Source: Acidobacteriota bacterium
Lineage (GTDB): Bacteria; Acidobacteriota; UBA890; WLXD01
Length of the DNA stretch: 64,000 bases
Direction: 5' to 3'
Assembly: GCA_965248695.1 (NCBI GenBank)
Contig: CBDFKD010000002.1
Coordinates: 3,232,001 to 3,296,000, forward strand
Shown here: one piece after another, positions 3,029 through 53,106 of the stretch
Position numbering within the stretch: position 1 is the stretch's first letter
How the letters are laid out: every line of letters starts with the position of its first letter
Position numbers and translations under genes: made by a program
The notes under the pieces: model-generated
Told to the model about the DNA's origin: nothing
Databases searched by the model: none
Seen by the model: the letters and a program-made list of their open reading frames with translations, nothing else

Positions 3029-3143
3029 GCCGTCGTTCGCTGCCTCCCGACGGACCAAGCGCCAGACGCCGCGATATAGTGCGCGCCAACGCTATCTGCT
3101 ACCGGCGATCGGGCGCCGATCTCACCTATCGAGGAGCCGTCGA

Positions 3144-6685: not shown

Positions 6686-6739
6686 GGTTCTGGCTCCCTT
6701 GTGCGGCGGACCGATCCGTTCGCCACGTTGGATCATCGA

Positions 6740-35884: not shown

Positions 35885-36706
35885 CTACTGGTTCGACGGG
35901 CGCTCGGGCTGCTGATCGTCCGGCTGTTGATCAGGCTGCTCGAAGCGGCCTCGCCCGCGACCGCCCATCGACTCCTGGTGCGCCTCCAGCTCCGCGCGGG
36001 TTACCTGCCCGTTGCCATCGGCGTCGGCCCTCGATAGTCGTTCCCAGAGCATCTCCGGCAGCTGCTCGGCGCTGAGGTAGCCAACACCATCAGCGTCGAA
36101 TCGGGAAAACAGGCCATCGAGCATGCGTTCACGCATGGCGTCGCGAGCCTCACCCCAATCCCCGCGTTCGGCGCCTTGCCCACCAGCCGGGCCAGCGGGC
36201 CTGGCGGCTCGACCACGACCTCCGAATCTGCCGGCTCGGAAGCCTCCGGACCAGTGGCGACCACCCCGAAATCCGGGACGGCTGGTCCAGAGGCCCCCGC
36301 CGGCGAACCCTCTCCGACCGAAACGAGCCAAGTGACGGCCACCACGACCGCCGACGAATCCGCCAAAGCCGCGCCCAGGACCGAAGCGGCGCCCGGCAGA
36401 GAATCCCCGGCCGGCGGCAACCCCCCCAACAAAGGCTCGACGTCCCATGCTCCGGCTCTGTCGCGGCATCAACTCGTCGACGCCGACGCTGCCGTCGCCG
36501 TCTGCATCAAGCGCTGTGAGTGACTCCGAGGCCGAAGCGATCTCTGCCGCCGAGATCTCACCGTCGCCATCGGTATCCAGTGCGTTCAACAGCTGCGGCG
36601 CTTGGCCCCAGCCGCCAGGCTCTTCATCAGGCGCCTGTGCCAAGGCACTCCCGGCGCAGACCAGCACAGCGACCACCGCCGCCGCGGATGTCTTGAAAGC
36701 ACTCAT
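35885..36706 (-). CDS. Secreted EF-hand protein with Gly/Arg/Phe-rich linker
   Basis: Signal peptide (ALA|Q); EF-hand loops DTDGDGEISAAE, DADGDGSVGVDE, DADGVGYLSAEQ, DADGNGQVTRAE; GAAGGAGG RBS. Confidence 0.85.
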   Translation of the reverse strand: MSAFKTSAAAVVAVLVCAGSALAQAPDEEPGGWGQAPQLLNALDTDGDGEISAAEIASASESLTALDADGDGSVGVDELMPRQSRSMGRRAFVGGVAAGRGFSAGRRFGPGRGFGGFVGGRGGRHLARFGRRGFAGGGLWTSRPGFRGGRHWSGGFRAGRFGGRGRAARPAGPAGGQGAERGDWGEARDAMRERMLDGLFSRFDADGVGYLSAEQLPEMLWERLSRADADGNGQVTRAELEAHQESMGGRGRGRFEQPDQQPDDQQPERPSNQ

Positions 36707-37825: not shown

Positions 37826-38803
37826 TCACGCACTGAAGAACAAGAGAACCAACATCAGCCAAGTCACCGCAAAGCCACACCGTTGACGCATCCACCCCAA
37901 CTGAGTGTCACGCTCCATCAGATGTTCGACCCTCTCGGAGAGCATCGGACGGACGCCCAGCAACTGCGGAACGAACTGCAACCGGCGGGTCAGCTCCGTG
38001 CGGCTGGCGGCGGCGTATCGGTACGTTTTCATCAGCATTCCGGCGTAGGTCTCGGGGCCGCCCAGAACATCGACCGCGACGTCGTCGCAAGCCTTCTCCT
38101 CCTCCCGGTGCAGCTGCGCCGCTATCACCCCGGCGAACGGGTTCAGGGTCGAGAAGACGCGCACGCCCTCGGACGAGAAACAGTTTCCCGGCTGCCGCAG
38201 GTAGATATGGGCCAGTTCGTGGGCCAGGGCGCCGCGCAATTCTGCGTCCCCCAGCCGCGCCAAGAGATTCGACGGAAAGACGATCGCCGGGTCACCCTCG
38301 ACGATCACCGCCGGTGAGGCAAGATTCGTCTGCGTCAGGAGCCGCGGGCGCTGAGGCAACCCTTCGAACCGGCAGCGAGCCCGGATGCGCTCGGCGTTGG
38401 CTCGATACAACGCCATGACCTCATCGAGCGCCGCCGCCAGGCGTCCGTCCTCCGGCACCGGCGTCGCTCCCGTCAGCAGCGCCCCTTGCGCTCGCCGGGC
38501 GAGGGCCCACCGCACGAGAACCGCGATGCCGGTGAGCAGGATGAACACCGGCAGGACCGTCTGCGTCGGTACCGCTTGGCGCGCCCAATCGCCGAATACC
38601 TGCCGCGGCCACGCAACCACCAGCGCCAGCCCGAGCAACACCAGCGTCGACTTCAACAGCGGTGCCAGGTACAGGCACAGGCGCAACTTGCCATGCTGAA
38701 TACGAAAGACATGTACGGCCAGATGGACAAAGGCCCAGGTCAGGCTGCCGGCAACGAGGGCCGGCAGCACGTTGTTCAGCAGGAACTGGCTCGCGACGCT
38801 CAT
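37826..38803 (-). CDS. M56-family membrane metallopeptidase (BlaR1/MecR1-like, no sensor domain)
   Basis: N-terminal TM helices, ALAHELAHI zinc motif, NP, EEKACDD, LSERV; ATGA overlap with the repressor gene. Confidence 0.88.
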   Translation of the reverse strand: MSVASQFLLNNVLPALVAGSLTWAFVHLAVHVFRIQHGKLRLCLYLAPLLKSTLVLLGLALVVAWPRQVFGDWARQAVPTQTVLPVFILLTGIAVLVRWALARRAQGALLTGATPVPEDGRLAAALDEVMALYRANAERIRARCRFEGLPQRPRLLTQTNLASPAVIVEGDPAIVFPSNLLARLGDAELRGALAHELAHIYLRQPGNCFSSEGVRVFSTLNPFAGVIAAQLHREEEKACDDVAVDVLGGPETYAGMLMKTYRYAAASRTELTRRLQFVPQLLGVRPMLSERVEHLMERDTQLGWMRQRCGFAVTWLMLVLLFFSA

Positions 38804-39204
38804 CGCTGTCGGTCCTGGCGTTTTCGGCGGATCAGTTCCTCGAGCCGCCGCAGTTCGTCGTCGTCGACGCGCTCGTCCGACTCGATCAGGTGCGCGATGG
38901 CCCGGCTCGTCGAGCCGCCGTAGACTCGCCCAACGACCGATTGCAGCAGAGAGCCTGCGACCGCATCCTGGCTGGCCGCCGGCCTGTAGACATAGGCCCG
39001 GCCGTCCTTGTGGCGCTTCAGCAGCCCCTTGTCGGCGAGCCGAGTCATTACCGTCATGACCGTGGTGTAGGCAGCACCGCGCGTGGGCTCGAGGGCACGG
39101 CGCACATCTTCGACCGTCGCCTCCGTCGAATCCCACACGACCCGCATGATCTCCGCTTCCAGATCTCCCAGCCGATCCGGACTGCCGGGTTCCTGCCTGC
39201 TCAT
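38800..39204 (-). CDS. BlaI/MecI/CopY-family repressor
   Basis: LGDLEAEIMRVVW, AYTTVMTVM.RL..KG.L.R...GRAY.Y; no C-terminal Cys motif, so not CopY. Confidence 0.93.
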   Translation of the reverse strand: MSRQEPGSPDRLGDLEAEIMRVVWDSTEATVEDVRRALEPTRGAAYTTVMTVMTRLADKGLLKRHKDGRAYVYRPAASQDAVAGSLLQSVVGRVYGGSTSRAIAHLIESDERVDDDELRRLEELIRRKRQDRQR

Positions 39205-39236: not shown

Positions 39237-40760
39237 TCAAGTCGGCATCGCCTGACGCAGTGACCTGACCAGCGAGATGGCCATTGCGATGCCGATGAAC
39301 AGCACCGGGAACGATGCGATCAACACACCCAGCCGGATGACCTGGAGCCCACCGACGAACATCATGAACACCGGCAATACGCCGATCACCAGCGCCCAGA
39401 ACAGGCGGTGCTCGCGGCCAGGGTTCTGGTTTGCCCGCAACTCGGCAGTGACGCTGGCGGCGAGGGTGTACGAGGCCGAATCGTAGGTCGTGGCTACGGA
39501 GATGCAGCTCACCACCGCGAGGACGGCGAGCGCGAGCGCACCGTAGGGCAGCGACGCGACGATCTGCGCGGTGGCGACGTTCATGCCGCTCTCCGCCAGT
39601 ATGGCGCTCAACGGCAGGACACCCTCCAGCTCCAAGTACAGGGCGTAGTTGCCCATGATGAAGTAGAAGATCCAGCATCCCAGCGTGCCGAAGAAGATCA
39701 TCGAAACGACGACCTGTCGGATCGTGCGCCCACGGGAGATGCGGGTCACGAAGATGCCGATCACCGGGGCAAAGGCGATCCACCAGGCCCAGTAGAAGAT
39801 CGTCCAGGCCTCTACGAAGCCGGTCGACTCGACGGCGTCGGTCCAGGTCATCATGCGGACGAAGTTCTGCACCATGAAGCCGACGGTGTCGGTGGAGGTC
39901 TTGAGGATGAACAGTGTCGGCCCCACCAGCAGCATGTAGCCCAGGAAGCACAGCACCAGCACCACGTTGAGGTCGCTCAGCCGCTTGATGCCGCGCTCGA
40001 GCCCCTTGTAGACGCTGACCGCGAACAGCCCGACGCAGAAGATCACCACGCCGGCCTCGAGGCTGAACGACGACTCGATGCCGAACAGCTCGGCGAGCAC
40101 CGCGGCGATCATCGGGGCGATTAGCCCCAGCGACGTGCCGGCTCCACCGATAAGGCCGAGCATGGCGGCAAGGTTGATGAGCCGTCCGACGACGCTGCGA
40201 TGACCCTCTGGTCCGAGCAACGCATGGCACGACGTGCTGGCGCACAGGTGCGGCACGCGCTCGACGTAGAACGGGTAGGCAATCGCCACCGTGGCCAGCG
40301 CGTACAGGCTCCAGGCAGTCACTCCCCAGTGGAACGGCCCGTAGGCGCTGGCCCACGCGATCGCCTCGACGGAGCGCGGCTCGGCACCGAACGGTGGCGC
40401 ATTGTAGTAGCTGATCCACTCCACGCCTCCAAACACTAGAAGCGACGCACCGGTGCCGGCGCAGAACAGCATCCCGGCCCAGGAGAAGGTCGAGAAGTCC
40501 GGCCGCTCGCCTTCGCCCCCCAGCCGTACCTGACCATGGCGGCTCGTGGCCAGCCAGATGAGGAACAGAATCGCGCCGATGGCGCACCACTGGTACAGGA
40601 ATCCGAAGTTGTGCGTCAGGCCATCGTACAGATCAGAGACCAAGGCCCCGGCGCGATCTGGATCGACACCGAGGGGAATACTCGCGGCGGCGACCACGCC
40701 GATGACGACGGTGAACATTACCCAGTCGATCTTCGGATCTGCCGGTGCGCCGCCACGCAT
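39237..40760 (-). CDS. BCCT-family betaine/carnitine/choline transporter
   Basis: SWAGMLFCAG.G, FHWG..AW, GIKRLS..N, WTIFYWAWWIAFAP..G.F..RISRGRTIR. Confidence 0.95.
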   Translation of the reverse strand: MRGGAPADPKIDWVMFTVVIGVVAAASIPLGVDPDRAGALVSDLYDGLTHNFGFLYQWCAIGAILFLIWLATSRHGQVRLGGEGERPDFSTFSWAGMLFCAGTGASLLVFGGVEWISYYNAPPFGAEPRSVEAIAWASAYGPFHWGVTAWSLYALATVAIAYPFYVERVPHLCASTSCHALLGPEGHRSVVGRLINLAAMLGLIGGAGTSLGLIAPMIAAVLAELFGIESSFSLEAGVVIFCVGLFAVSVYKGLERGIKRLSDLNVVLVLCFLGYMLLVGPTLFILKTSTDTVGFMVQNFVRMMTWTDAVESTGFVEAWTIFYWAWWIAFAPVIGIFVTRISRGRTIRQVVVSMIFFGTLGCWIFYFIMGNYALYLELEGVLPLSAILAESGMNVATAQIVASLPYGALALAVLAVVSCISVATTYDSASYTLAASVTAELRANQNPGREHRLFWALVIGVLPVFMMFVGGLQVIRLGVLIASFPVLFIGIAMAISLVRSLRQAMPT

Positions 40761-42244
40761 CAGCGCATCACGAAGGGGTTCGCCATCGGCTCGCTGGAGG
40801 TGTTGACCCACACGGACTTGGAGCGCGTGTAGTCGTAGATCGCCTGCAGTCCGCTCTCGCGACCGTAACCGCTGTTCTTGAAGCCGCCGAACTCGGCCAC
40901 CGGGGAGACCACGCGGTAGGTGTTGACCCACACGATGCCGGCGCGGATGGCGCGGGTCATGCGTAACGCGCGGGCGCTGTCGCGGGTGAAGATGCCAGCC
41001 GCAAGGCCATACTTGGTGTCGTTGGCAGCCGCCACGACCTCCTCCTCGGTGCTGAATCGCAGCACGCTGAGCACCGGCCCGAACAGTTCGGTATCGACGA
41101 TCTGATCGCCCTGACCGGTGCACTCGATGATCGTCGGCTCGAAGAACCACCCGTCCCCCAGTCCCGACGGGCGGCCACCGCCGTGGAGGATCCTGGCACC
41201 CTGCTCCCGGGCCACCTCGATCTCCCGCTCGATCCTCTGTAGCTGGGCCTCGGTGGCCAGCGGGCCCATCTGAGTCTCATCAGCCAGCGGATCGCCGATG
41301 CGGATCTGGTCGGCTCTTTCGACCAGGCCTGCGAGGAACTGGTCGGCGATGCTCTCGTGTAGGTAGAGGCGAGATCCGGCGACACAGCTCTGACCGCTGG
41401 CGCCGAAGATGCTGGCCACGACGCCATTCGTGGCGCTCTCCATGTCGGCATCCTCGAAGACGACGACCGGAGACTTGCCGCCGAGCTCCAGCGACACCTG
41501 GGCGAGATTCTCCGCCGAGTTGCGAACCACGTGCCGCGCGGTCTCGGGACCGCCGGTGAAGCTGATGCGGGCCACGAGGGGGTGCGCGGTCAGCGCTTGC
41601 CCGCACGGTTGGCCGTGGCCGGAGATGATGTTGACCACGCCGGCAGGAAAGCCGGCCTCCTCGACGACGCGACCGAACTCCAGCAGCGGCGCCGAGGCGT
41701 CCTCGGAGGCCTTCACGACCACCGTGTTGCCGGCGGCGAGCGCCGGTCCCACCTTGACCGCCAGCAGGAACAGCTGCGAGTTCCAGGGAACCACTGCTGC
41801 GACAACACCGAGCGGCTCGCGCGTCGTGAACACCAGCAGGTCCGGCTTGTCGATGGGCAGGGTCTCGCCGTGTACCTTGTCGGCCAGACCGGCGTAGTAG
41901 TGGAAGTACTCGGCGATGTAGCCGGCCTGCCAGCGAGTCTCCTTGAGCAACTTGCCGGTATCGACGGTCTCGGTCCGCCCCAGGGCTTCCGATCGTTCGG
42001 CGAGCAGGTCACCGAGCTTGCGCAGGTACTTACCGCGCGCGGTCGGAGTGGTAGCGGCCCAGGGGCCCTCGGTGAATGCGCGGTGTGCCGCCGCCACGGC
42101 ACGGTTGACGTCCGCCTCGCTGGCATCGGGGATGCTGGCCCACGTCTCGCCGGTGGCGGGATTGACACTGTCGAAGCGGCGATCCCCCTCGGCGTCGACC
42201 CACTCGCCGTCGATCAGCATCTGGTATCGCTCGTTGCTACCCAT
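40760..42244 (-). CDS. Aldehyde dehydrogenase, TgnC-like
   Basis: PWNSQLFL, FTGGPETA, ELGGKSP, GQSCVAGSR, ELFGPV, C-terminal PFVMR. Confidence 0.9.
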   Translation of the reverse strand: MGSNERYQMLIDGEWVDAEGDRRFDSVNPATGETWASIPDASEADVNRAVAAAHRAFTEGPWAATTPTARGKYLRKLGDLLAERSEALGRTETVDTGKLLKETRWQAGYIAEYFHYYAGLADKVHGETLPIDKPDLLVFTTREPLGVVAAVVPWNSQLFLLAVKVGPALAAGNTVVVKASEDASAPLLEFGRVVEEAGFPAGVVNIISGHGQPCGQALTAHPLVARISFTGGPETARHVVRNSAENLAQVSLELGGKSPVVVFEDADMESATNGVVASIFGASGQSCVAGSRLYLHESIADQFLAGLVERADQIRIGDPLADETQMGPLATEAQLQRIEREIEVAREQGARILHGGGRPSGLGDGWFFEPTIIECTGQGDQIVDTELFGPVLSVLRFSTEEEVVAAANDTKYGLAAGIFTRDSARALRMTRAIRAGIVWVNTYRVVSPVAEFGGFKNSGYGRESGLQAIYDYTRSKSVWVNTSSEPMANPFVMR

Positions 42245-42435
42245 GCTCTCCAACCTCACTTTGGCCAGCTTCTTCGTTGTCTTTTCCCGGCGCCGCGAGC
42301 CACACGAGTCGCGTGCAGGGGGTAGTTGTGCCTTTTGGTCACCTCGACATCAAGTGACGACCGGCAACCACGCGCATAAGATGGGGGCCCCGCGGAGCGG
42401 GGGGTACGCGCAATTCGACCCATGAGGCGGGCATT

Positions 42436-42861
42436 TTGGGCACCGGACGCGAGGTAATCGGCGGCGCACTGAGCATCGGGGGGCGCAGGCTGTCCCTTTC
42501 CAGGGCGATCCGCGCCGGCGACTTCGTCTTCCTGACCGGACAGATCCCGATGCGGGATGGCGAGGTGGTAACGGAGGGGTCGGTCGAGGAGCAGACGCGT
42601 ATCGTCCTCGATCTGATCAAGGCGACGCTGGCGGAGGCGGATTGCGGCCTCGGGGACGTGGTGAAGTCGATGATCTGGCTCAGGGATCGGGCGGATTTCC
42701 CCGGCTTCAACACTGTCTATGGTGACTACTTCCCGGACGAGCCGCCCGCCAGATCGGCGATCATTAGCGAGTTATTGGTGGACGTACGGGTCGAGATCGA
42801 GGTCGTCGCCTATAAGCCGCAGGAATGCCCTGGTCCGCAAACGCCGACGGTGCCGGCGTGA
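42436..42861 (+). CDS. RidA/YjgF-family protein
   Basis: SRAIRAGDFVFLTGQIP, EEQTR, DVVK, FN.VY..YF...PPARS, VEIEVVA. Confidence 0.9.
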   Translation: MGTGREVIGGALSIGGRRLSLSRAIRAGDFVFLTGQIPMRDGEVVTEGSVEEQTRIVLDLIKATLAEADCGLGDVVKSMIWLRDRADFPGFNTVYGDYFPDEPPARSAIISELLVDVRVEIEVVAYKPQECPGPQTPTVPA

Positions 42862-43928
42862 AGTTCGACCTGGTGGTCAACCTGGAACGCATCGACGACT
42901 CCGTCGAAATGCAGGACGTCCTGTCGCATACCACCGAGATGGTGGAGATGGCCGACGCGGCCGGCTTCGCGATCGTCTGGGCCGCCGAGCATCACGCCAT
43001 CGAGATGACCATCGCGCCCTCGCCGTTCCAGCTGCTGACCCACTTCGCGGCGCGCACCTCGCAGATCCGTCTCGGTACGGCTGTGGTAGTGGCACCGTAC
43101 TGGCACCCGATCAAGCTCGCTGGCGAGGCGGCGCTCTTCGACCTGCTGTCCGGCGGCCGATTGGAGTTCGGCATCGGGCGTGGCGCCTATCAGCGCGAAT
43201 TCGACCGGCTCATGGACGGAATGCACCAGCATCTGGGCGTACCGATGATGCTCGAGATGCTGCCGGCAGTGAAGGCACTCTGGCAGGGCGACTACGAGCA
43301 CGACGGGGAGTACTGGAAGTTCCCGGCGTCGACCTCGTGCCCGAAGCCGTTGCAGAAACCGCACCCGCCGATCTGGGTGGCGGCCCGCGATCCCGGAACC
43401 TTCAACGCGTCGGTAGCCGAGGGTCACAGCATCGTGACCTGGGCTCTGACGCGACCCTTCGCCGAGGTGGAGCTCTACAAGAGCCACTTCGAGAAGGCGC
43501 TGGCCGCCAGCCCCGGGGTCGAGCGACCGCGCTTCGGGACCATGCGTCACGTTGGCGTGTACTGCAGCGCCGGCGGCGAAGCGCCGTTTATCCAGGCCAT
43601 TCAACGACAGGGACGAGCGTTCGAGAACCTCTTCCGCAACCTGGCGCCGGTCGTCGACGGCTTCCCACAGGATCCGGATCCGGAATTGCTGACGAACCAG
43701 GCGGAGTACGAACCCGACAACCTGATGGCCAACCTGATCCTGGGCACCCCGGCCGAGGTCATCGAAAAGCTGCAGCCATACGCCGACCTCGGTGTGGACC
43801 ACTTCGTGTTCAACTCCGCCTACGGGCTGGCGCCTGAACACCAGAAGAACTCGCTGCGACTGTTCATCGACGAGGTCATGCCGGCGTTCGTCGAGGGCTC
43901 CAGTCCCGACGCGACGACCGGCCACTAG
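42858..43928 (+). CDS. Luciferase-like flavin-dependent monooxygenase, TgnB-like
   Basis: W.AEHH...TIAP.PF, RLGT..VVAPYWHPIKLAGEAA, GRGAY, PKPLQKPHPPIWVAARDP; GTGA overlap with the Rid gene. Confidence 0.88.
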   Translation: MKFDLVVNLERIDDSVEMQDVLSHTTEMVEMADAAGFAIVWAAEHHAIEMTIAPSPFQLLTHFAARTSQIRLGTAVVVAPYWHPIKLAGEAALFDLLSGGRLEFGIGRGAYQREFDRLMDGMHQHLGVPMMLEMLPAVKALWQGDYEHDGEYWKFPASTSCPKPLQKPHPPIWVAARDPGTFNASVAEGHSIVTWALTRPFAEVELYKSHFEKALAASPGVERPRFGTMRHVGVYCSAGGEAPFIQAIQRQGRAFENLFRNLAPVVDGFPQDPDPELLTNQAEYEPDNLMANLILGTPAEVIEKLQPYADLGVDHFVFNSAYGLAPEHQKNSLRLFIDEVMPAFVEGSSPDATTGH

Positions 43929-43936
43929 GAACGAGC

Positions 43937-44743
43937 ATGGTCATGGACGGTCCGACGCCGGGCACCGCGTGGACCTCCGCGGGGCAAGGACCACCGATCG
44001 TCCTCGTACACGGACTCGGGCTCAACCAGGGCTTGTGGCACTGGCTGGCTCCGGCGCTGTCGCCCAGCTACCGCGTCATCACATACGACCTGATCGGGCA
44101 CGGCACGAGTCCCAGGCCGCCGACGCCGTATTCGATACAGGACTTCGTGGACCAGCTCGACGAGCTAACGGCAGGGCTCGAGCTCGACTCCTTTGTGCTG
44201 GTCGGGTTCTCCCTCGGCGGGCTGATCGCGCAGGCCTTCGCTGTCGCCTATCCGGAGCGCGTGCCAGCGCTGGCCATCCTGCATTCGGCCCACGCCCGGA
44301 CAGAAGCCGAGACCGCCGCCGTGCTCGAGCGGGCGCGCGACGCCGCCATCCACGGACCCGGAGCCATGGTACCGGCGGCGCTCGATCGCTGGTTTAGCCC
44401 CGAATTCGCCCAACGCTCCCCCGATACGCTGCGTCGCGTCGCAGGCTGGATCGAGGCCAACGATGCCGCCGCCTTCGCGGCCGCGTATCGCGTGCTGGTC
44501 GACGCGGACGCGGAACTAGTCAATGCCCTGCACCGCATCGCGTGCCCGACGCTGGTGGTCACCGGCTCGGAGGACCACGGCAACTCCCCCGAGATGGCGC
44601 AGCGAATGGCGCGCGTCATCCCGGTTGCCGAATGCCATATTCTCCCGGGCCTGCGCCACATGGCGCTGGCCGAAGACCCGCAGTCGACGCTCGACATCCT
44701 GTTGCCGTTTCTGCGTCGGACGATCGCCGATGACCACTCGTAG
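43937..44743 (+). CDS. Alpha/beta hydrolase (TgnD/PcaD-like)
   Basis: LVHGLG, YDLIGHG, GFSLGG nucleophile elbow, RWF, TGSED, LRHM. Confidence 0.85.
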   Translation: MVMDGPTPGTAWTSAGQGPPIVLVHGLGLNQGLWHWLAPALSPSYRVITYDLIGHGTSPRPPTPYSIQDFVDQLDELTAGLELDSFVLVGFSLGGLIAQAFAVAYPERVPALAILHSAHARTEAETAAVLERARDAAIHGPGAMVPAALDRWFSPEFAQRSPDTLRRVAGWIEANDAAAFAAAYRVLVDADAELVNALHRIACPTLVVTGSEDHGNSPEMAQRMARVIPVAECHILPGLRHMALAEDPQSTLDILLPFLRRTIADDHS

Positions 44744-45773
44744 CTCCGTGATCGGGATCGTCGGCACCGGGGTTATCGGCGGCGGCTGGGCGCTGCACTT
44801 CCTGGCTCAGGGGCTCGACGTGGTGGCGTTCGATCCGCACCCGCAAGCACGTGGTCGGATGGATCGTCTGACCGAGACAGCCTGGCCGGCGCTCGAGAAG
44901 CTCGGTCTGAAACCCGGCGCCTCGCTGCGGCGACTCCGCTACGCCGACACGCTCGAAGACGCCGTCGCGGATGTCGATGTCGTGCAGGAGAGCACTCCGG
45001 AGCACCTCGAATCGAAAGTCGAGGTCTTCCGTCGTATGGACGCCGCCGCGCCGCCGGACACGCTGTTGCTGTCGAGCACCTCGGGCCTCTCGATGTCGGA
45101 CATGCAGGTCGCCTGTGCGCATCCCGAACGCACCGCCGTCGGTCACCCCTTCAACCCGCCCTATCTCATTCCGCTGGTCGAGGTGGTCGGTGGGCGCCGC
45201 ACCAGCACCGCAACGGTCGACCGTGCAGCAGCGTTCTATTCTGCTCACGGCAAGCGCGTCGTGAAGCTCCGCAAGGAGCTGCCGGGATTCATCGCCGCGC
45301 GGCTCCAGGAGGCCATGTGGCGCGAGATGCTCCACATGGTTGCCAACGACGAGGCCACGGTGCAGGAGATCGACGAAGCCATCGTCGCCGGACCGGGGTT
45401 ACGGTGGGCGATCATGGGACCAGGCTTGACGTTTCATGTTGCCGGCGGTGAAGGGGGAATGGCGCACGTGCTCGATCAGTTCGGTCCGGCGCTCAAGTGG
45501 CCGTGGACGCGGCTGGAAGCACCCGAGCTCACCGACGACCTCCGCCGCCGCATGATCGAGGGCTGTGAGGAAGAGGCCGGTGGGCGCAGCATCGCCGAGC
45601 TCATCCGGGAGCGCGATGACACTCTGATCGAGATTCTGCGGACCATCGAGCGGCGCGCCACCACGCCACGCCCCGAGGTGGAACGCCCGGTTCCTGATGG
45701 CGCCGTCGCGGAAGGCGCCGATACGGAGGGCCTCCATTCAGACGGCCCCGACACGGAGAACACCGATGAGTGA
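44730..45773 (+). CDS. L-carnitine(-CoA) 3-dehydrogenase-like, 3-hydroxyacyl-CoA dehydrogenase family
   Basis: GTGVIGGGWA, QESTPE...K, SSTSG, GHPFNPPYL.PLVE, RLQEAMWRE.LHMV, GPGLRWA, QFGPALKWPWT.LEAPELT. Confidence 0.85.
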   Translation: MTTRSSVIGIVGTGVIGGGWALHFLAQGLDVVAFDPHPQARGRMDRLTETAWPALEKLGLKPGASLRRLRYADTLEDAVADVDVVQESTPEHLESKVEVFRRMDAAAPPDTLLLSSTSGLSMSDMQVACAHPERTAVGHPFNPPYLIPLVEVVGGRRTSTATVDRAAAFYSAHGKRVVKLRKELPGFIAARLQEAMWREMLHMVANDEATVQEIDEAIVAGPGLRWAIMGPGLTFHVAGGEGGMAHVLDQFGPALKWPWTRLEAPELTDDLRRRMIEGCEEEAGGRSIAELIRERDDTLIEILRTIERRATTPRPEVERPVPDGAVAEGADTEGLHSDGPDTENTDE

Positions 45774-46566
45774 CGCCGTCCAGGTCTCCACGCGAGACGG
45801 AGTGCTGGAGATCACCCTCGACCGGCCGCCGGTCAACGCCATCGACATACCCACCAGCGTGGCCCTCGGCGAGGCCTTCGTACAGCTGCGCGACGATCCC
45901 GACCTGCGCGTCGGCATCATCACCGGCGGCGGCGAGAAGACGTTCTGTGCCGGGTGGGACTTGAAGGCGCTGGATGCCGGCGACATGGCGCTGGAGCGCT
46001 GGTGGGAGGCGGACTACGGCCCGGGCGGATTCGCCGGGCTCACCGAGCTCTGGGACCTCCACAAGCCGGTGATCGCGGCGCTCAACGGCCACGCCATCGG
46101 TGGCGGAATGGAGCTCGCGCTTGCCTGCGATCTACTGCTGGCGGCGAGCCACGTGAGCTTCCGGTTGCCGGAGCTGCCGCTCGGTATGGTGCCCGACGCC
46201 GGTGCCGTGCAGCGGTTGCCGCGCCGCCTGCCGCGCAACATCGCCATGGAGATGCTCTACCTCGGTCGCTGGCTGACGGCGGAAGAGGCGGCGCACTTCG
46301 GGCTCGTCAACGCCGTCGTCGAACCGACCGCGCTGATGGACCGGGCGCGCGAATGGGCGGCTCAGATTGCCGAGGTCGCCCCGCTGGCAGTCCAGGCAAT
46401 GAAGGAAGTGACCGGCGGACTGGACGGCATGGCGCCGCAGCGCGCCTATGAGGTGCTGCGCCAGGGTAGGTTCCAGCACTACGAACGGATGATGACGTCG
46501 GAGGACGCCAAAGAGGGCGTCAGCGCCTTCGTGGAAAAACGCGACCCGACGTTCAAGAGCGAGTAG
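45766..46566 (+). CDS. Carnitinyl-CoA dehydratase/crotonobetainyl-CoA hydratase-like enoyl-CoA hydratase
   Basis: LDRP..NAID, FCAGWDLKA, DYGPGGFAGL, AIGGGMELAL, LPE..LG..PDAG, SEDAKEG..AF.EKR. Confidence 0.85.
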   Translation: MSDAVQVSTRDGVLEITLDRPPVNAIDIPTSVALGEAFVQLRDDPDLRVGIITGGGEKTFCAGWDLKALDAGDMALERWWEADYGPGGFAGLTELWDLHKPVIAALNGHAIGGGMELALACDLLLAASHVSFRLPELPLGMVPDAGAVQRLPRRLPRNIAMEMLYLGRWLTAEEAAHFGLVNAVVEPTALMDRAREWAAQIAEVAPLAVQAMKEVTGGLDGMAPQRAYEVLRQGRFQHYERMMTSEDAKEGVSAFVEKRDPTFKSE

Positions 46567-46571
46567 GCCAG

Positions 46572-48632
46572 ATGGATCTCGTGCGCCTGCTATCTCCGCG
46601 TGCCGTGGCATTCGTCGGCGGACGAATCGCCGAGATGGCCATCCGACGCTGCCAGCAGCTCGGCTATTCGGGCGAGATCATGCCGGTTCATCCGCGACGC
46701 GATTCGGTCGCCGGCCTACGGTGCTATCCGAGCCTCGAGTCGCTGCCGTGCATACCCGACGCGGCCTACGTCGGGGTCAACCGCGACCTCACGATCGACA
46801 TCGTCGGACGCCTCGCCGCCATGGGCGCAGGCGGCTGCGTCTGCTACGCCGCCGGATTCGCCGAGATGGGCGACACCGGGCAGGAGTACCAGGATCGCCT
46901 GGTCGAGGCCGCCGGCAAGATGCCCTTGGTCGGCCCCAATTGCTTCGGCTTCGTGAACCTGGTGGATGACTGCGCCCTGTGGCCCTACCTGTTCGGCGGC
47001 GAGCACGTGGAGCAGGGTGTGGCGCTGATCTCCCAGAGCGGCAACATCGCCATGAACCTGACGATGAACCGGCGCTCGGTGCGATTCACCCACGTGATCG
47101 GCACCAGGAACCAGGCGGTGCTGGGGCCCGGCGACTATCTCGATGCGCTGCTGGACGATCCTCGGGTGCGCGCCGTGGGCATGTACCTGGAAGGGCTCGA
47201 CGATGTCGCTCGTTTCGGCGCGGCGGCGACGCGGGCGCTGGATCAGAGTGTGCCGGTAGTGGTCATGAAGGTTGGACGCACGGAAGCGGCGGCCGAGCGG
47301 GCCAGCACGCACACGAGCTCGCTGACCGGCGCGGACACGGTGGTCGACGCCTTCTTCAAACGCCTGGGGGTTACGCGGGTCGAGTCGCTGAACCAGCTGC
47401 TGGAGACGCTGAAGGTATTCGACCGGGCAGGACCGTTGCCCGGCAACGACGTCGTGACGCTATCGTGCTCGGGCGGAGAAGCCGCCATTCTGGCGGATCT
47501 CACCGAGCAGCGCGGGCTGAGCACCTCGGCGTTCTCGGATCAACAGCGCCGTGATCTCGAGGCCGAATTCGCCGACTACGTCACCGTCTCCAACCCCTTC
47601 GACTACAACACCTCTATCTGGGGGGACGGAGCCGCGCAGGAGCGCTGCTTCACGACCTCGATGAGCGGCGCGCACGATGCCGCGCTGCTGATCTACGACC
47701 ATCCAACGGTCAAGGCAGACGAGGTCGACGAGTGGATCGTCGCTCTCGACGCGTTCGTGAGGGCGCACGAGGCAACCGGTATGCCGTCATTTGTGGTCAG
47801 CACGATCACCGAGCTGTTGCCCGCAGCGCTGCGCCAGCGGCTGATCGAACGTGGCGTCACGCCACTGCAGGGGCTCGAGGATGGAATCTTTGCAATCGCC
47901 GCGGCAGCCAACTACGCCCGCCGACGCGCCGCTGCACCTGCCGCGATCGCGGTTCCCGGCAACGCCCCGGCTGATGGCGTCTGGCTCGACGAGTGGGAGA
48001 GCAAGCAACAACTTGCCGCGTGCGGCCTCGACTCCCCGCTGGGGGCCGTCGGGGCTGCCGACGAGCTACCGGCGATCGCCGATCGCCTCGGCTACCCGGT
48101 GGCTGTCAAGGCCGTCGGGGCCGAGTTCGCCCACAAGACCGAGCTCGGAGCCGTGGCGCTTGGCCTCGACCGCGAAGCAGCACTCGTGGCCGCCGTCGCC
48201 GAGATCACCGAGTCGGCGGCGCGAACCGGCAACCGGCCGCGCCGCTTCCTCGTGGAGCGCATGGTCGAAGATGCGGTGGCTGAGCTCCTCATTGGTGTGA
48301 AACGAGATCCGCAGTTCGGCTTGATCCTGGTCATCGGCAGCGGCGGAGTGCTCGTGGAGCTGGCCGCCGACACCGCGCTCCTGCTACTGCCAATCGACCG
48401 GACGGCAGCCGCTGCAGCGCTCGCTTCGCTGAAGATCGATCGCTTGCTAGACGGGTACCGCGGCGCGCCAGCCGGCGATCGCGACGCGGCGATCGATGCC
48501 ATCGTCGCGGTGGCGGACCTGGCGATCGGCCATTGGGATACCCTCCAGGAGCTCGATATCAACCCCCTCATGGTTCGTCCGGTTGGCCGCGGTGCCGTAG
48601 CCGCCGACGCCCTGATCCGGATGTCACTATAG
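46572..48632 (+). CDS. ADP-forming acyl-CoA synthetase (acetate--CoA ligase family, fused alpha/beta)
   Basis: CoA-binding N-domain, AGFAE, GPNC.G, SQSGN, THT (phospho-His), SCSGG, HKTELGAV, ELDINP. Confidence 0.88.
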   Translation: MDLVRLLSPRAVAFVGGRIAEMAIRRCQQLGYSGEIMPVHPRRDSVAGLRCYPSLESLPCIPDAAYVGVNRDLTIDIVGRLAAMGAGGCVCYAAGFAEMGDTGQEYQDRLVEAAGKMPLVGPNCFGFVNLVDDCALWPYLFGGEHVEQGVALISQSGNIAMNLTMNRRSVRFTHVIGTRNQAVLGPGDYLDALLDDPRVRAVGMYLEGLDDVARFGAAATRALDQSVPVVVMKVGRTEAAAERASTHTSSLTGADTVVDAFFKRLGVTRVESLNQLLETLKVFDRAGPLPGNDVVTLSCSGGEAAILADLTEQRGLSTSAFSDQQRRDLEAEFADYVTVSNPFDYNTSIWGDGAAQERCFTTSMSGAHDAALLIYDHPTVKADEVDEWIVALDAFVRAHEATGMPSFVVSTITELLPAALRQRLIERGVTPLQGLEDGIFAIAAAANYARRRAAAPAAIAVPGNAPADGVWLDEWESKQQLAACGLDSPLGAVGAADELPAIADRLGYPVAVKAVGAEFAHKTELGAVALGLDREAALVAAVAEITESAARTGNRPRRFLVERMVEDAVAELLIGVKRDPQFGLILVIGSGGVLVELAADTALLLLPIDRTAAAAALASLKIDRLLDGYRGAPAGDRDAAIDAIVAVADLAIGHWDTLQELDINPLMVRPVGRGAVAADALIRMSL

Positions 48633-48681
48633 AACCCAACAGCTCGCGACAAGGAAAGTCGATGACCGGTGCTCCTGCATC

Positions 48682-49563
48682 ATGAGTACTAGCGGCGTCA
48701 TCATCACCTGCGCCGTCACCGGCTCGGGAGATACGCTCGACAAGCATCCGGATGTGCCGGTCACCCCGCAGCAGGTTGCGGACGCCTGTGTCGAGGCAGC
48801 GAATGCCGGCGCCGCGGTGGTCCACATTCACGTGCGCGATCCGGAGACGGGCAAGGGCAGCCGAAATGCCGATCTGTTTCGCGACACTGTCGAGCGCCTA
48901 CGGAGCCGCAACTCCGAAGTGATCGTCAACCTGACCTCGGGGATGGGCGGCGACTTCGTTCCCGGCGAGGACGACCCTTCCGTGGCCGGACCCGGAACCG
49001 ACCTCATCGGGCCACTCGAGCGACTGGTCCATGTCGAGGAGCTGCGACCCGATATCTGCAGCCTCGATTGCGGCAGCATGAACTTCGGCCTCGGTCACGA
49101 GGTCTACATCAACACCACCGCCAATCTCGAGATCATGGCGCGCCGTTGTCAGGAGATCGGCGTCAAGCCCGAGCTCGAGGTCTTCGATCTGGGGCAAATC
49201 CGTTGCGCCAAGTACCTTCGAGATAAGGGCCTGGTCGATGATCCGCCCATGTTCCAGATTTGCCTCGGCCTGGCGTGGGGGGCCGGTGCCGACGCCGAGT
49301 CGATGTTGGCGATGCGCAACGAGCTGCCAGAGGGCGCCAACTGGTTCGCCTTCGGCGTCGGGCGCCAGCAGATGCCGATGGCGGCTCAGAGCGTGCTGCT
49401 TGGAGGCCACGTTCGCGTCGGCCTCGAAGACAACCTCTACCTCAGCCGCGGCGTCCTGGCCAGCAACGGCGATCTGGTGGCGAAGGCTGTACGGATCGTC
49501 GAAGAGCTCGGTGCGCGCGTGCTCGAACCCGCTGAGGCGCGAGCGGTTCTAGGGATCGCCTGA
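48682..49563 (+). CDS. Beta-keto acid cleavage enzyme (BKACE/DUF849, CdhC-like)
   Basis: IITCAVTG, AGAAVVHIHVRDP, SLDCGSMNF, KPELEVFD, GGHVRVGLEDN. Confidence 0.93.
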   Translation: MSTSGVIITCAVTGSGDTLDKHPDVPVTPQQVADACVEAANAGAAVVHIHVRDPETGKGSRNADLFRDTVERLRSRNSEVIVNLTSGMGGDFVPGEDDPSVAGPGTDLIGPLERLVHVEELRPDICSLDCGSMNFGLGHEVYINTTANLEIMARRCQEIGVKPELEVFDLGQIRCAKYLRDKGLVDDPPMFQICLGLAWGAGADAESMLAMRNELPEGANWFAFGVGRQQMPMAAQSVLLGGHVRVGLEDNLYLSRGVLASNGDLVAKAVRIVEELGARVLEPAEARAVLGIA

Positions 49564-49815: not shown

Positions 49816-51816
49816 GTGCATCGAACCCGTAAAGCCGTCTGCAATGGACCGCTGCGAGCGCTGGTCGCGAGTGCGCTTGCGACCGCCGCGCCCTCGAGCG
49901 CCGCGGCGCAGACACCGTCCGAGGAGCTCGACCGCATCGTGTCGACCGTCGTCGCGGACATTGACACACGGTCCGTTCGCGGTGGCGAAGCGACAATCAG
50001 CTGGCACACTGACGGGCCGGTTCTGAGCGTCGACCTGAAGCTCGCCGACGAGCTGGAACTGCCCATCGTCGAGCTCGCCCATCATCCCGAGGTTGATGGC
50101 GGCTGTACGACGGTTTCGCGCTTCGAGCACAGCCGACGCAACCGGCTCGGTGGACGATTTGCTGCCGTCGGCAATGATCCGTCGCTGGCGGTTGCCGAGC
50201 TGACCGCGGACGCGAGCGGCGCGCGCCACCTGCGGTTCGCGTATCGGCAGACACCCGACGGCGAGGCTCGGCTCCGCTTGAACCTCTACGACCCCGACCC
50301 CACCGATCACACGATCCACTACCTCGACGGTCGCGCCTTCGATTCGATCCGGTTCTGGATCAGGAATCCGGGCGGCAGCCCGGCCGTGGATATCGGCATC
50401 GCCGACGCAGCCGGCGACACGCCCATACACGTGGGCACGCTCGACGAGCTTGCTACTGCACACACGGGCGTCGAGTGGCGCCTGGTCTCGCTCCCCCTGC
50501 AGGAGATGTCACAGCTTCTCGACCGTAGCCGCCTGGCGACCCTCCACCTGCAACCGTCGCGGCCGGGCAGCGGCACCATCGAGATCGACAACCTCTCCCT
50601 TTGTCGCGGCAGCGCGGAGCCCGATCGCCCCGGCCGCACGAGCGCGCCAGCCATCGCTGGGAACGGGAAATCTCTCTGGGTTTGGCATACAAGCGACCTG
50701 ATGGTCGATGGGGCCGCGCTCCAGGAGCTGACGGCGATGGTGCGCCGGCGTGGGATCGACCGCGTGTACCTGCAGCTTCCGAGCGCGCTCACGCAGGCGG
50801 GGAGTAGTGCCGCCGACAATGTCGCGCTAGAAGCCGTGGGCGGCGCCACGCTGACGGCGTTGGAAGCCGTCATCGAGGCGCTGAACAAGGCTGGAGCCGC
50901 CGTCGACGCCCTGGACGGAGCTGCCAGCTTCGCCCTGCCCGAAAACCACGCTGCGGTCGAACGCGACGTCGCGGCGGTAATCCGTTACAACGAAGCCGCT
51001 CCCTCGGGAGCGCGGTTCGCCGGCCTGCACTACGACATCGAGCCCTACCTGCTACCGGGCTTCGGCACCGAGCTGCGGGTCGAGATCGTCGCCGGGTATC
51101 TGACGATATTGGAACGCATCGCGGCACTCGCCGCTCCGGCGAACTTGCGGTTCGAGGTGGCGATCCCGTTCTGGTTCGACTCGATCCGTATGCACCGACC
51201 GAGTACGGAAGTCGACGGGGGTCTCAGCTTCCGGGTGCTCAGCGACGCAGTCATCGACGTCGTCGACTCGGTAGCGATCATGGACTACCGCACCCGGGCT
51301 GACGGCACGAATGGCACCGTGGCACTGGCTGCGAGCGAGCTCGAGTACGCCTCCGAGCGCGGCAAGCGGGTTCGTATCGGTCTGGAGACCGGGTTTCTTC
51401 CAGATCAGGACTTGCTGCGCTTCGAGGGCGAGGGCGGTCGTGGGATGCCACACGGCGACTCGTCGCGGTCTTGGATTGTCGCCGGTACCTCCGCCGAGGG
51501 GGCACGGACATACGTCGTCCCGGCAGCGCAGCTGGCCCAACTCCCGGCCACGCTGCTCAACGACGGCATCGCGGCGGCCAGCGTGCGCCACTGGCAGGCC
51601 GCCAGGCCGGTGCGCGTCGACGCCCGCCGCCTGACGTTCCACGATGTCGGCATCGAGCGTATGCGGTCCGTGATCGAGGAATCCACCGACCAGATGCGAC
51701 GCTATGCCGCATTCGAGGGCTTCGCGATTCACTACGACCGACCCTATCGTCGCCTGCTGGACAGGGCCTCGGTGCCCACCGTGGACGACGACGGCCGGCA
51801 CCGCCGCCAGCGGTAG
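49816..51816 (+). CDS. Secreted protein: carbohydrate-binding-like domain plus putative glycoside-hydrolase TIM barrel
   Basis: Signal peptide; IRFWIR..EWR.VS.PL..IEIDNL beta-sandwich; SLWVW, GLHYDIEPY, IMDYR, IGLET, GFAIH. Confidence 0.6.
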   Translation: MHRTRKAVCNGPLRALVASALATAAPSSAAAQTPSEELDRIVSTVVADIDTRSVRGGEATISWHTDGPVLSVDLKLADELELPIVELAHHPEVDGGCTTVSRFEHSRRNRLGGRFAAVGNDPSLAVAELTADASGARHLRFAYRQTPDGEARLRLNLYDPDPTDHTIHYLDGRAFDSIRFWIRNPGGSPAVDIGIADAAGDTPIHVGTLDELATAHTGVEWRLVSLPLQEMSQLLDRSRLATLHLQPSRPGSGTIEIDNLSLCRGSAEPDRPGRTSAPAIAGNGKSLWVWHTSDLMVDGAALQELTAMVRRRGIDRVYLQLPSALTQAGSSAADNVALEAVGGATLTALEAVIEALNKAGAAVDALDGAASFALPENHAAVERDVAAVIRYNEAAPSGARFAGLHYDIEPYLLPGFGTELRVEIVAGYLTILERIAALAAPANLRFEVAIPFWFDSIRMHRPSTEVDGGLSFRVLSDAVIDVVDSVAIMDYRTRADGTNGTVALAASELEYASERGKRVRIGLETGFLPDQDLLRFEGEGGRGMPHGDSSRSWIVAGTSAEGARTYVVPAAQLAQLPATLLNDGIAAASVRHWQAARPVRVDARRLTFHDVGIERMRSVIEESTDQMRRYAAFEGFAIHYDRPYRRLLDRASVPTVDDDGRHRRQR

Positions 51817-51950: not shown

Positions 51951-53063
51951 ATGTCGACCACCCCGACCTTGGAGCCGGAGCTGGAAGGCCGCGTCGCCGC
52001 GGCCCGCGCGGCGCTCGATGAGCAGGTCCGCAGCATTGTCGCCTGGCACTTCGACCCCGCCACCGGCTGCCCGTTTTGGTTGCAGTGGGCCGGCGAGCAG
52101 GACTGGGATCCGCGCGACGTCATCGGCGGCTTCGCCGACCTGGTGAAGTTCGGTCACTTTCAGGACGAATGGTTGCGCGGCGGCCCGGTGCGGCGCTGGG
52201 TGCCGAAAGCGTACGCCGATCGCCCGGTGTTCACCTTCGAGACCGGTGGCACCACGGGCACGCCGAAGAGCCGCATCAACATCGACGACTTCCGCGTCGA
52301 CTACGAGCTCTTCTCCGACACGCTCCCGGAGGAACACTTCCCGCCCGGCGCCAACTGGCTGATGCTCGGTCCCAGCGGCCCTCGTCGCCTGCGACTCGCG
52401 GTCGAGCACCTGGCACATCATCGCGGCGGCATCTGCTTCTGCGTCGATCTAGACCCGCGCTGGGTGATCAAGCTCATCAGGAAGGGTTGGGCCGAGCACC
52501 TCAAGGCCTACCAGGAGCACGTCATCGACCAGGCGGTCACCATCCTGGAGTCGAACCACGAGATCCGTTGCCTGTTCAGCACCCCGAAGCTGCTCGAAGC
52601 GCTGGCGCTGCGGCTCGAGGACAAGGGCACGACGATTCGAGAGGCGGGCATCACCGGCATCTTCTCGGGCGGCACCGAGTTCACCCCGCAGTGGAATCGC
52701 TTCGCGCACGAGGAGCTGCTCGACGGCGCCTACATGACCCCGACCTACGGCAACACGCTCATGGGTCTGGCGGCGAGCTCGCCGAGCGGACCACACAACG
52801 GCTACAAGATCACCTACTACGCGCCGCAGCCGCGCGCGGCCGTGCAGGTCGTCGATCCCGACGACGCTACCCAGCTGGTGCCCTACGGCGAGACCGGACG
52901 CGTGATGCTGACCACGCTCACCAAGGAGTTCTTCATGCCGCGCTTCCTGGAGCGCGACGAGGGCGAGCGCGAGCTGCCCTACGAGAGCTACCCCTGGGAC
53001 GGCGTCAGCGGCGTGCGACCCTTTGCGCGCATCGCCAAGTCGACCACCGTGGGCGTGTACTGA
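51951..53063 (+). CDS. ANL-superfamily adenylating enzyme, EhpF/LuxE/PaaK-like
   Basis: WHFDP.TG.PFW, P-loop FETGGTTGTPK, YGNT, VPYGETGRV..T.L, P..LERD. Confidence 0.75.
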   Translation: MSTTPTLEPELEGRVAAARAALDEQVRSIVAWHFDPATGCPFWLQWAGEQDWDPRDVIGGFADLVKFGHFQDEWLRGGPVRRWVPKAYADRPVFTFETGGTTGTPKSRINIDDFRVDYELFSDTLPEEHFPPGANWLMLGPSGPRRLRLAVEHLAHHRGGICFCVDLDPRWVIKLIRKGWAEHLKAYQEHVIDQAVTILESNHEIRCLFSTPKLLEALALRLEDKGTTIREAGITGIFSGGTEFTPQWNRFAHEELLDGAYMTPTYGNTLMGLAASSPSGPHNGYKITYYAPQPRAAVQVVDPDDATQLVPYGETGRVMLTTLTKEFFMPRFLERDEGERELPYESYPWDGVSGVRPFARIAKSTTVGVY

Positions 53064-53106
53064 TCCGCGATCAACCGACGACACCCACAACCCGAGCTGC
53101 CTGACA

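Follow-up and report, generated by a model that had tools for sequence, protein, structure and literature searches.

A recurrent gene island that may join trigonelline-type oxidative enzymes to a carnitine-type CoA module, as found in an Acidobacteriota genome

The gene cluster at positions 39237-49563 of a 64 000-nucleotide stretch of an Acidobacteriota genome (assembly GCA_965248695.1, contig CBDFKD010000002.1, positions 3 232 001-3 296 000; this whole stretch is called the window) raises the question of whether two sets of genes, which resemble two different routes of betaine breakdown, serve one pathway or two. Open reading frames (ORFs) and family scans identified nine genes in two divergent operons. 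An aldehyde dehydrogenase (ALDH) and a BCCT-family importer are read leftward; a RidA-family protein (Rid), a luciferase-like flavin-dependent monooxygenase (LLM), an alpha/beta-fold hydrolase, a carnitine-dehydrogenase-like enzyme (CDH), an enoyl-CoA hydratase (ECH), an acyl-CoA synthetase (ACS) and a beta-keto acid cleavage enzyme (BKACE) are read rightward. In a preliminary description of this DNA, the cluster was seen as a composite in which a ring-opening module of the trigonelline (Tgn) type is joined to a carnitine/butyrobetaine CoA pathway. We favour the reading that the nine genes form one integrated catabolic pathway for an N-methylated betaine, and consider the chances of this to be evenly balanced. 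The unit would then consist of trigonelline-type oxidative enzymes and a RidA protein built into a carnitine/gamma-butyrobetaine-type CoA module and served by a single importer, a picture that we hold with middling confidence. The same combination of genes recurs in many marine and soil bacteria and probably represents one still-uncharacterised pathway for a nitrogen-rich osmolyte.

Linkage and co-inheritance of the two modules

The argument starts from observed features of the locus and its relatives, namely gene families, packing, conserved linkage, subtype association and co-inheritance. The window proteins were aligned onto 79 loci, each surrounding an LLM homologue in a species-representative genome, and ECH, CDH or BKACE counted as a partner when identity was at least 45% and half of the query or more was covered. 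The preliminary description would have been refuted had the two modules never been linked in other genomes; at least one of the three partners was present in 42 of the 79 LLM loci, and all three were present in 32, which span three phyla-level groups. For the 44 loci with long flanks (at least 8 kb on both sides) the corresponding counts were 28 and 24. These linkage counts are lower bounds, as in two apparently negative genomes a partner lies just beyond the flank (in G005 the BKACE is 14 kb away from the LLM, and in G010 the ALDH is at 12 kb). The nearest locus, L001, has an LLM that is 94% identical and the same gene order, and it belongs to the Acidobacteriota, in agreement with the phylum considered in the preliminary description. 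The gene content, the families and the tight divergent packing given there were likewise borne out, with nine genes at these coordinates, agreeing Pfam families and overlapping start and stop codons. What has to be given up is the idea of a composite in the sense of a local join: the joint cluster is a widespread, co-inherited type of island and not a local one-off. Our literature searches found no published description of it.

The genes occur in three interleaved orders. The first, BCCT-ALDH diverging from Rid-LLM-hydrolase-(acyl-CoA dehydrogenase)-CDH-ECH-ACS-BKACE, is that of the window and of a set of gammaproteobacterial metagenome-assembled genomes (MAGs; loci L002-L007), which additionally carry an acyl-CoA dehydrogenase, a CMD-family protein, a flavin reductase and an NCS1 permease. 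The second, hydrolase-Rid diverging from ALDH-LLM-ECH-CDH-(GlxA)-BKACE-ABC transporter-acyl-CoA dehydrogenase-ACS, is plasmid-borne in Parasedimentitalea marina W43 and Aminobacter sp. SR38. The third, in which a histidine ammonia-lyase-type gene and ALDH diverge from Rid-HisAF-ECH-CDH-BKACE-LLM, occurs in a group of alphaproteobacterial MAGs. At L048, a locus of this third type, the histidine/phenylalanine ammonia-lyase-family gene is at 2977-4428 on the minus strand and the gene for a HisA/HisF-family barrel is at 6375-7232 on the plus strand, between Rid and the hydratase; these two genes occur in 11-12 related loci. Each annotated island has one transporter system: the window has BCCT, P. 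marina and Aminobacter have an ABC transporter, and in L004 an NCS1 permease gene directly follows BKACE. The P. marina plasmid pW43B encodes a 707-aa fusion (L083, 7028-9151) of a family-III (CaiB-type) CoA-transferase (421 bits) to a flavin reductase (128 bits), which is annotated as 'CoA transferase' only. The Aminobacter island ends in an acetoacetate--CoA ligase, which is to be expected if BKACE releases acetoacetate. Beside that island, on plasmid pSR3 (L085, 1-7084), are genes for an MmgE/PrpD protein, an acyl-CoA dehydrogenase, a CoA transferase, a MaoC dehydratase, a CoA ester lyase and both subunits (alpha/beta) of ETF, a set that resembles C5-dicarboxylate routes (itaconate, methylsuccinate).

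The subtypes of the enzymes follow the linkage. Of 83 loci examined for ALDH, 41 had one. The 32 ALDHs that are at least 66% identical to that of the window were accompanied by CoA genes in 22 loci (all three in 20) and by Rid in 24, whereas the nine below 66% were accompanied by neither; this split is an association among related loci and not a count of independent events. Rid was present only in CoA-linked islands among these LLM loci. Pairwise identities of ALDH were 68-81% among CoA-linked islands and 44-61% to clusters of the Tgn type only, and those of the hydrolase were 45-63% as against 28-43%; pairwise LLM identities showed no such division. The hydrolase lies directly downstream of the LLM in many loci, yet it is missing from some islands: the L048-type operon is without one, the best match in that genome being 40% identical and far away, and no hydrolase was found in G010 at E<=1e-25.

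In a tree of BKACE proteins, 38 LLM-linked BKACEs, the G005 copy and a basal copy from G003 fall on one side, and on the other are the BKACEs of two stand-alone carnitine clusters together with the second copy of the window's own genome (SH-aLRT support 89). The main BKACE clades mirror the LLM tree. The LLMs of the window and L001 are nested among those of gammaproteobacterial MAGs (SH-aLRT 96), and the BKACEs of the window, L001 and G005 are sister to those of L004 and L007 (SH-aLRT 99). Among 301 Acidobacteriota genomes sampled, the ALDH was matched at E<=1e-160 in six, of which only two, the window's genome and G285 (97%), reach 66% identity or more. From these trees and counts, the island looks like a rare trait in Acidobacteriota that was laterally acquired. 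A mosaic origin was also considered, with native BCCT, CDH and BKACE genes and imported LLM and ALDH genes, and was rejected because the BKACE and LLM trees agree on the gammaproteobacterial sister group. Since the two enzymes share this sister group, the simplest history would be that the genus acquired the island once by lateral transfer and that some members later lost LLM, ALDH, hydrolase, ECH and ACS.

The genes of the window

The two operons diverge from an intergenic region of about 190 nt (42245-42435) that presumably holds both promoters. A consensus scan found no sigma-70-like site and no terminator above shuffled expectation. Refined starts were set for BCCT (40760), ALDH (42244, giving 494 aa as in its homologues), LLM (42858) and ECH (45766). 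On the left, the stop codon of ALDH and the start codon of BCCT (ATG at 40760) share the overlap TGATG. On the right, the stop of Rid overlaps the likely LLM start in GTGA; a GTG start at 42858 gives an LLM of 356 aa, in keeping with its homologues, which are 354-356 aa long and whose alignments begin at query residue 12. The LLM and hydrolase genes are 8 nt apart, the hydrolase and CDH genes overlap by 14 nt, and CDH and ECH overlap in ATGAGTGA; gaps of 5 nt and 49 nt separate ECH from ACS and ACS from BKACE. The G+C content of the cluster (0.65-0.68) is the same as that of the remainder of the window. Among the sequencing runs listed, four from a single study contain this DNA, and none is of RNA. 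All nine proteins score below the NCBIfam equivalog cut-offs.

The LLM (42858-43928, plus strand, 356 aa; Pfam Bac_luciferase PF00296, 172 bits) and the ALDH (40760-42244, minus strand, 494 aa; an NAD(P)-dependent enzyme by family, Pfam Aldedh PF00171, 559 bits) are among the best-conserved proteins seen, with 65-94% and 73-97% identity among the 120 best matches listed for each. The LLM had 5883 significant relatives among 8000 scored, and nearly all listed ALDH homologues are 494 aa long. The likeness of LLM, ALDH and hydrolase to Tgn enzymes that was proposed at the outset holds at the level of annotation: the JGI label 'flavin-dependent trigonelline monooxygenase, oxygenase component' is attached to three of the 120 listed LLM homologues, and the activity names of TgnC and TgnD are each attached to one of the 120 listed homologues of ALDH and hydrolase respectively. 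It also agrees with the existence of rhizobial Tgn-type clusters without CoA genes. The ALDH and LLM motifs quoted in the preliminary description are all present in the translations; all seven also occur in the LLM and ALDH of a Tgn-type cluster on Sinorhizobium meliloti pSymA, which are 41-43% and 59% identical to those of the window. The best solved relative of the LLM in the PDB is 7bip (95 bits), the same search returned no structure of TgnB, and matches in the ESM Atlas carry generic LLM cluster names only. The ALDH falls below every equivalog cut-off, its best NCBIfam match being betaine-aldehyde dehydrogenase (BADH; 494.9 bits, cut-off 668.6).

The hydrolase (43937-44743, plus strand, 268 aa; Pfam Abhydrolase_1 PF00561, 108 bits, with weak Thioesterase matches) is PcaD/TgnD-like. 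Its best NCBIfam match is PcaD, a 3-oxoadipate enol-lactonase (163.5 bits, cut-off 255.85), it scores 63.7 against RutD (cut-off 238.5), its translation holds the nucleophile motif GFSLGG, and from these family matches it is possibly an amidase, an esterase or a thioesterase. The Rid protein, by family an imine/enamine deaminase (42436-42861, plus strand, 141 aa; Pfam Ribonuc_L-PSP PF01042, 95 bits), scores 91.6 against TIGR00004 (cut-off 106.25) and 59.8 against RutC (cut-off 169.1) and contains a PARS motif, which we take to carry the catalytic arginine.

The claim of a carnitine-like CoA module was upheld in that the best NCBIfam matches are carnitine proteins, at scores below the cut-offs, and the same five enzyme families stand alone in Rhizobium phaseoli. 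The CaiT/YeaV-like importer (39237-40760, minus strand, 507 aa; Pfam BCCT PF02028, 462 bits) has the L-carnitine/gamma-butyrobetaine antiporter as its best equivalog (400.5 bits, cut-off 541); its orthologues occupy the same position in L002 and L003 (64-65% identity) and reach 86-87% in related Acidobacteriota. The CDH, by family a 3-hydroxyacid dehydrogenase (44730-45773, plus strand), has only the 3HCDH_N and 3HCDH domains in its 347 aa and thus no thioesterase domain; it scores 371.3 against the L-carnitine dehydrogenase model NF005471 (cut-off 414) and 318 against the 495-aa model (cut-off 592). In LLM loci the median CDH length is 317 aa, compared with 484-495 aa for the 'carnitine 3-dehydrogenase' proteins of stand-alone carnitine clusters. 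The CaiD-like ECH (45766-46566, plus strand, 266 aa; Pfam ECH_1, 217 bits) is closest to crotonobetainyl-CoA hydratase (321.3 bits, cut-off 500; next family 228); its identity to hydratases encoded in LLM-linked islands is 59-75%, compared with 49% for the one in the carnitine cluster of R. phaseoli. The ADP-forming (NDP-forming) ACS (46572-48632, plus strand, 686 aa; CoA_binding_2, Succ_CoA_lig and ATP-grasp_5) is 44% identical to the R. phaseoli gene annotated as 'acetate--CoA ligase family' and 41-63% to island synthetases. The BKACE (48682-49563, plus strand, 293 aa; Pfam PF05853, 338 bits) scores 256 against the Kce equivalog (cut-off 382), has 3c6c as its best solved relative (333 bits), and is 51-55% identical to BKACEs of stand-alone carnitine clusters.

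Elsewhere in the window's own genome (G000:C2:4512500-4514387; L082, 8495-10376) a second, isolated pair of BKACE (58%) and CDH-like (45%) genes lies among TPR/DUF genes. This pair was considered as the 'true' carnitine pair and set aside, as its CDH scores like that of the window (369 and 371 bits, both below 414) and so does not discriminate. An acyl-CoA dehydrogenase 1.6 Mb from the cluster, 73% identical to the island gene of L004, is surrounded by genes for biotin carboxylase, TMP synthase and EPSP synthase and could not be attributed to the pathway.

Around the cluster, a 666-aa ORF without a Pfam family follows directly 3' of BKACE (49816-51816, plus strand) and is 75% conserved in the sister locus L001. 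Beyond it is an overlapping pair on the same strand, a 370-aa protein with a weak AMP-binding match (51951-53063, 31 bits) and a 500-aa distant member of the ALDH family (53023-54525, 56 bits); the pair is 95-97% conserved in L001 and may be an acyl-activating enzyme and reductase unrelated to the cluster. On the other side, BCCT is adjoined by a BlaR1/M56-M48-type membrane peptidase (37826-39136, minus strand), and a 273-aa protein built of EF-hand-like calcium-binding repeats is encoded at 35885-36706 (minus strand).

One pathway or two

The preliminary description left two readings side by side, one unit for several osmolytes or ring cleavage that feeds a CoA/BKACE route, and the data favour the latter. 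The single-pathway reading draws on the linkage itself, the interleaving of the genes in three orders, the association of ALDH subtype and Rid with CoA genes, the islands without a hydrolase and the CoA-transferase::flavin reductase fusion. To these are added the one transporter system per island, the BKACE tree, the CDH without a thioesterase domain and the acetoacetate--CoA ligase of the Aminobacter island. The substrate, the order of the steps and the role of each hydrolase we infer as follows. The CaiT-like BCCT would import an N-methylated zwitterion, which the LLM, supplied with reduced flavin mononucleotide (FMNH2) by a reductase encoded elsewhere, would cleave oxygenatively to an aldehyde, and ALDH would turn this into an acid. 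The synthetase would form the CoA ester, the hydratase would add water, a hydrolase acting as thioesterase might free the 3-hydroxy acid, and the CDH-like dehydrogenase would give the 3-keto acid. With acetyl-CoA, BKACE would split this into acetoacetate and a short N-substituted acyl-CoA, and Rid and hydrolase would release the amine. The reverse order is also possible within a single pathway, with the CoA module shortening a side chain before the ring is cleaved.

A more concrete version can be proposed. TgnB-type cleavage of the C5-C6 bond of an N-methylpyridinium followed by ALDH would yield a 4-(N-formyl-N-methylamino) C4 acid, and the product chain C5OOH-C4-C3=C2-N(CH3)CHO would be shaped like crotonobetaine or, with a 3-hydroxyl, like dehydrocarnitine. 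Such a carnitine-shaped C4 acid would explain the recruitment of Cai/Bco/Cdh-type enzymes and of BKACE, and also a CoA-transferase fused to a reductase. The full hybrid pyridinium-betaine route, in which ring opening at C5-C6 by a TgnB-like peroxyflavin enzyme and ALDH lead to this carnitine look-alike, CoA activation, hydration, release and oxidation follow, BKACE with acetyl-CoA gives acetoacetate and an N-formylsarcosyl-CoA-type product, and Rid and hydrolase release methylamine and formate, is put forward as a tentative and rather doubtful proposal.

Several observations weigh against a single pathway. The loci share ancestry, so that the linkage counts overstate the number of independent events, and both trees are the product of quick searches and have SH-aLRT values as their sole support, a more thorough search for the LLM tree being unfinished. 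The cluster is without an acyl-CoA dehydrogenase, a thioesterase, a regulator or a flavin reductase; the sole PF01613 flavin reductase of the genome is at C2:1560111, about 1.7 Mb away, and the flavin reductase of the L004 island used as query had no match in this genome at E<=1e-15 and at least 60% coverage. Each module also occurs alone. Rhizobium leguminosarum p3 has flavin reductase-ALDH-LLM-hydrolase-CMD with an amino-acid ABC transporter and no CoA genes, and S. meliloti pSymA (431-441 kb) has hydrolase-flavin reductase-LLM-ALDH with a second ALDH, a set of the Tgn type only. R. phaseoli pRphaN831a has a carnitine-type set only, GlxA diverging from BKACE-carnitine 3-dehydrogenase (495 aa)-acyl-CoA dehydrogenase-acetate--CoA ligase family-carnitinyl-CoA dehydratase-ABC transporter; the window proteins are 44-51% identical to these genes, which presumably correspond to the S. 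meliloti set for converting butyrobetaine to glycine betaine. Both modules are thus relatives of known, self-sufficient pathways, and judged by gene content each looks self-sufficient alone. No CoA genes lie within 10 kb of the LLM (58-74% identity) in 16 of the 44 loci with long flanks. In three congeners, CMD-ALDH (57%)-hydrolase (37%) diverges from LLM (66%) and is followed by about 10 kb of unrelated genes (MFS, an FG-GAP protein, malate synthase G), beyond which BCCT (86%) diverges from Rid (75%)-CDH (88%)-BKACE (83%)-x-acyl-CoA dehydrogenase-CaiB-type transferase, a carnitine-like unit with Rid whose operon has no LLM. In G005, Rid heads a Rid-CDH-BKACE operon without LLM, and in G003 CDH (45%) and BKACE (59%) occur only as an unlinked pair, which resembles the second pair of the window's genome. 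Malate synthase G in G005 is split into two adjoining ORFs (L091, 5614-7134 and 7135-7878), perhaps by a frameshift or an assembly error.

The main alternative is a two-substrate osmolyte island, in which LLM, ALDH and hydrolase act on trigonelline as in A. baylyi, while synthetase, hydratase, CDH and BKACE, as in S. meliloti, turn carnitine, crotonobetaine or gamma-butyrobetaine into glycine betaine and acetoacetate. The two routes would be biochemically independent and share only a promiscuous importer and a regulator. We regard this as possible, if on the unlikely side. It fits the modules that stand alone on rhizobial plasmids, the separate units of the congeners and the LLMs without nearby CoA genes in other genomes, but has to contend with an ALDH subtype and a Rid that are specific to CoA-linked islands and with genes interleaved in three orders. 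The near-complete sets of both modules in the Aminobacter and P. marina islands would also suit two routes; the single transporter system per island and the fusion that joins both chemistries in one protein point the other way. Carnitine proteins are the best family matches of BCCT, ECH and CDH, and some LLM, ALDH and hydrolase homologues bear Tgn names from JGI; however, the CDH is without the thioesterase domain of stand-alone carnitine clusters, some islands have no hydrolase, which a Tgn route needs, and the window has no second ALDH for the succinate-semialdehyde step.

Another possibility, which we consider quite unlikely, is that a true carnitine-type substrate passes first through the CoA module and only then through the oxidative one: BKACE would yield betainyl-CoA, the LLM would hydroxylate the carbon beside the quaternary nitrogen to give an amine and an aldehyde, and ALDH would oxidise the latter. 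Other LLM families do produce aldehydes by breaking C-N or C-S bonds, the importer is carnitine-like, as are the hydratase and the dehydrogenase, and the thioesterase that would end the route at glycine betaine is absent from CDH. The LLM, however, is 41-66% identical to LLMs in clusters without any carnitine genes, some of its close homologues are named trigonelline oxygenases by JGI, and Rid would have no obvious role on a quaternary amine. That the genes are unrelated neighbours brought together by chance is hardly conceivable given the start/stop overlaps along both operons and the recurrence of the set, and the conserved linkage already rules this explanation out.

Betaines such as trigonelline, homarine and carnitine are major forms in which carbon and nitrogen pass between algae, plants, invertebrates and bacteria. 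If the nine genes do form one pathway, they would give an abundant osmolyte a new metabolic fate and BKACE enzymes a new role. Should the hybrid route be true, it would be the first case of carnitine-pathway enzymes being recruited to finish the cleavage of an N-heteroaromatic ring, and would give a function to thousands of unannotated LLM, ALDH and BKACE genes in marine and soil metagenomes. The cultured carriers, P. marina W43 and Aminobacter sp. SR38 with the island on plasmids and Aestuariivirga litoralis KCTC 52945, make the pathway directly testable.

Comparison with known systems

Acinetobacter baylyi ADP1 reportedly degrades trigonelline through tgnABCDEF (work attributed to Perchat et al. 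in 2018), with TgnAB cleaving the C5-C6 bond to give an N-formyl group and an aldehyde at C5, the latter then being oxidised by TgnC. The window shares with this system the grouping of a two-component-type LLM oxygenase, an ALDH-family dehydrogenase and an alpha/beta hydrolase, with Tgn names from JGI on some close homologues; TgnB is assigned to the LLM family in a figure legend of PMC11354265. In relatives of the window, the likeness extends to a flavin reductase and an AA_synth-family protein. The differences are that the cluster is without a flavin reductase (TgnA) and a second, succinate-semialdehyde dehydrogenase (TgnE), having one ALDH only, that its ALDH and hydrolase are of a subtype apart from clusters of the Tgn type only, and that Rid and five genes of the CoA/BKACE route are built in. 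A search for AA_synth (PF06684), which we take as a guess to be the family of TgnF, gave no match in the 96%-complete genome, a weak result as the search control was also without a match.

The gamma-butyrobetaine/carnitine pathway of S. meliloti, with its Bco and Cdh enzymes, is said to have been described by Bazire et al. in 2019. The families shared with this rhizobial type are an ADP-forming-type synthetase, a CaiD-like hydratase, the carnitine-dehydrogenase family and BKACE, and in relatives of the window also an acyl-CoA dehydrogenase and a GlxA-family regulator. The window differs in its CDH without a thioesterase domain, the lack of an acyl-CoA dehydrogenase, a BKACE that groups apart, the equivalog cut-offs missed and the interleaving of LLM, ALDH, Rid and hydrolase with the CoA genes. 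The cai operon of Escherichia coli encodes CaiT, CaiA, CaiB, CaiC and CaiD; the importer and hydratase of the window have CaiT and CaiD as best family matches, and its relatives use a CaiB-type family-III CoA-transferase, but the cluster reads as aerobic and catabolic (CDH and BKACE), has an ADP-forming synthetase in place of a CaiC-type ligase, and scores below the cut-offs.

In the Rut pyrimidine pathway an LLM (RutA), a Rid protein (RutC), a hydrolase (RutD) and a reductase (RutF) are combined, and an N-heterocycle is opened by a peroxyflavin. The trio of LLM, Rid and alpha/beta hydrolase and the logic of this ring opening are shared, whereas the RutC and RutD scores given above fall well short of their cut-offs, there is no RutA among the 25 LLM matches listed of 30, and there is no RutB; by these family scores the cluster is not a Rut system. 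The preliminary description had also raised homarine as a substrate, for which no support was found. The homABCDER operon (Ferrer-Gonzalez et al., 2026; PMC13236597) shares with the island the breakdown of an N-methylpyridinium carboxylate, an ALDH-like enzyme and, in one host, a betaine-type transporter. Its enzymes are described in the available text as of other types (HomA FAD-binding, HomB its partner, HomC a peptidase, HomD ALDH-like), with no LLM, BKACE or CoA enzymes, and the two are set apart here by description only. The absence of a reductase and of a second ALDH speaks against counting the island among the Tgn systems, and the absence of a thioesterase domain and an acyl-CoA dehydrogenase, together with scores below all equivalog cut-offs, speaks against counting it among the Bco/Cdh systems. 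By the features compared, the island is a member of neither and resembles a Tgn cluster joined to a Bco/Cdh cluster.

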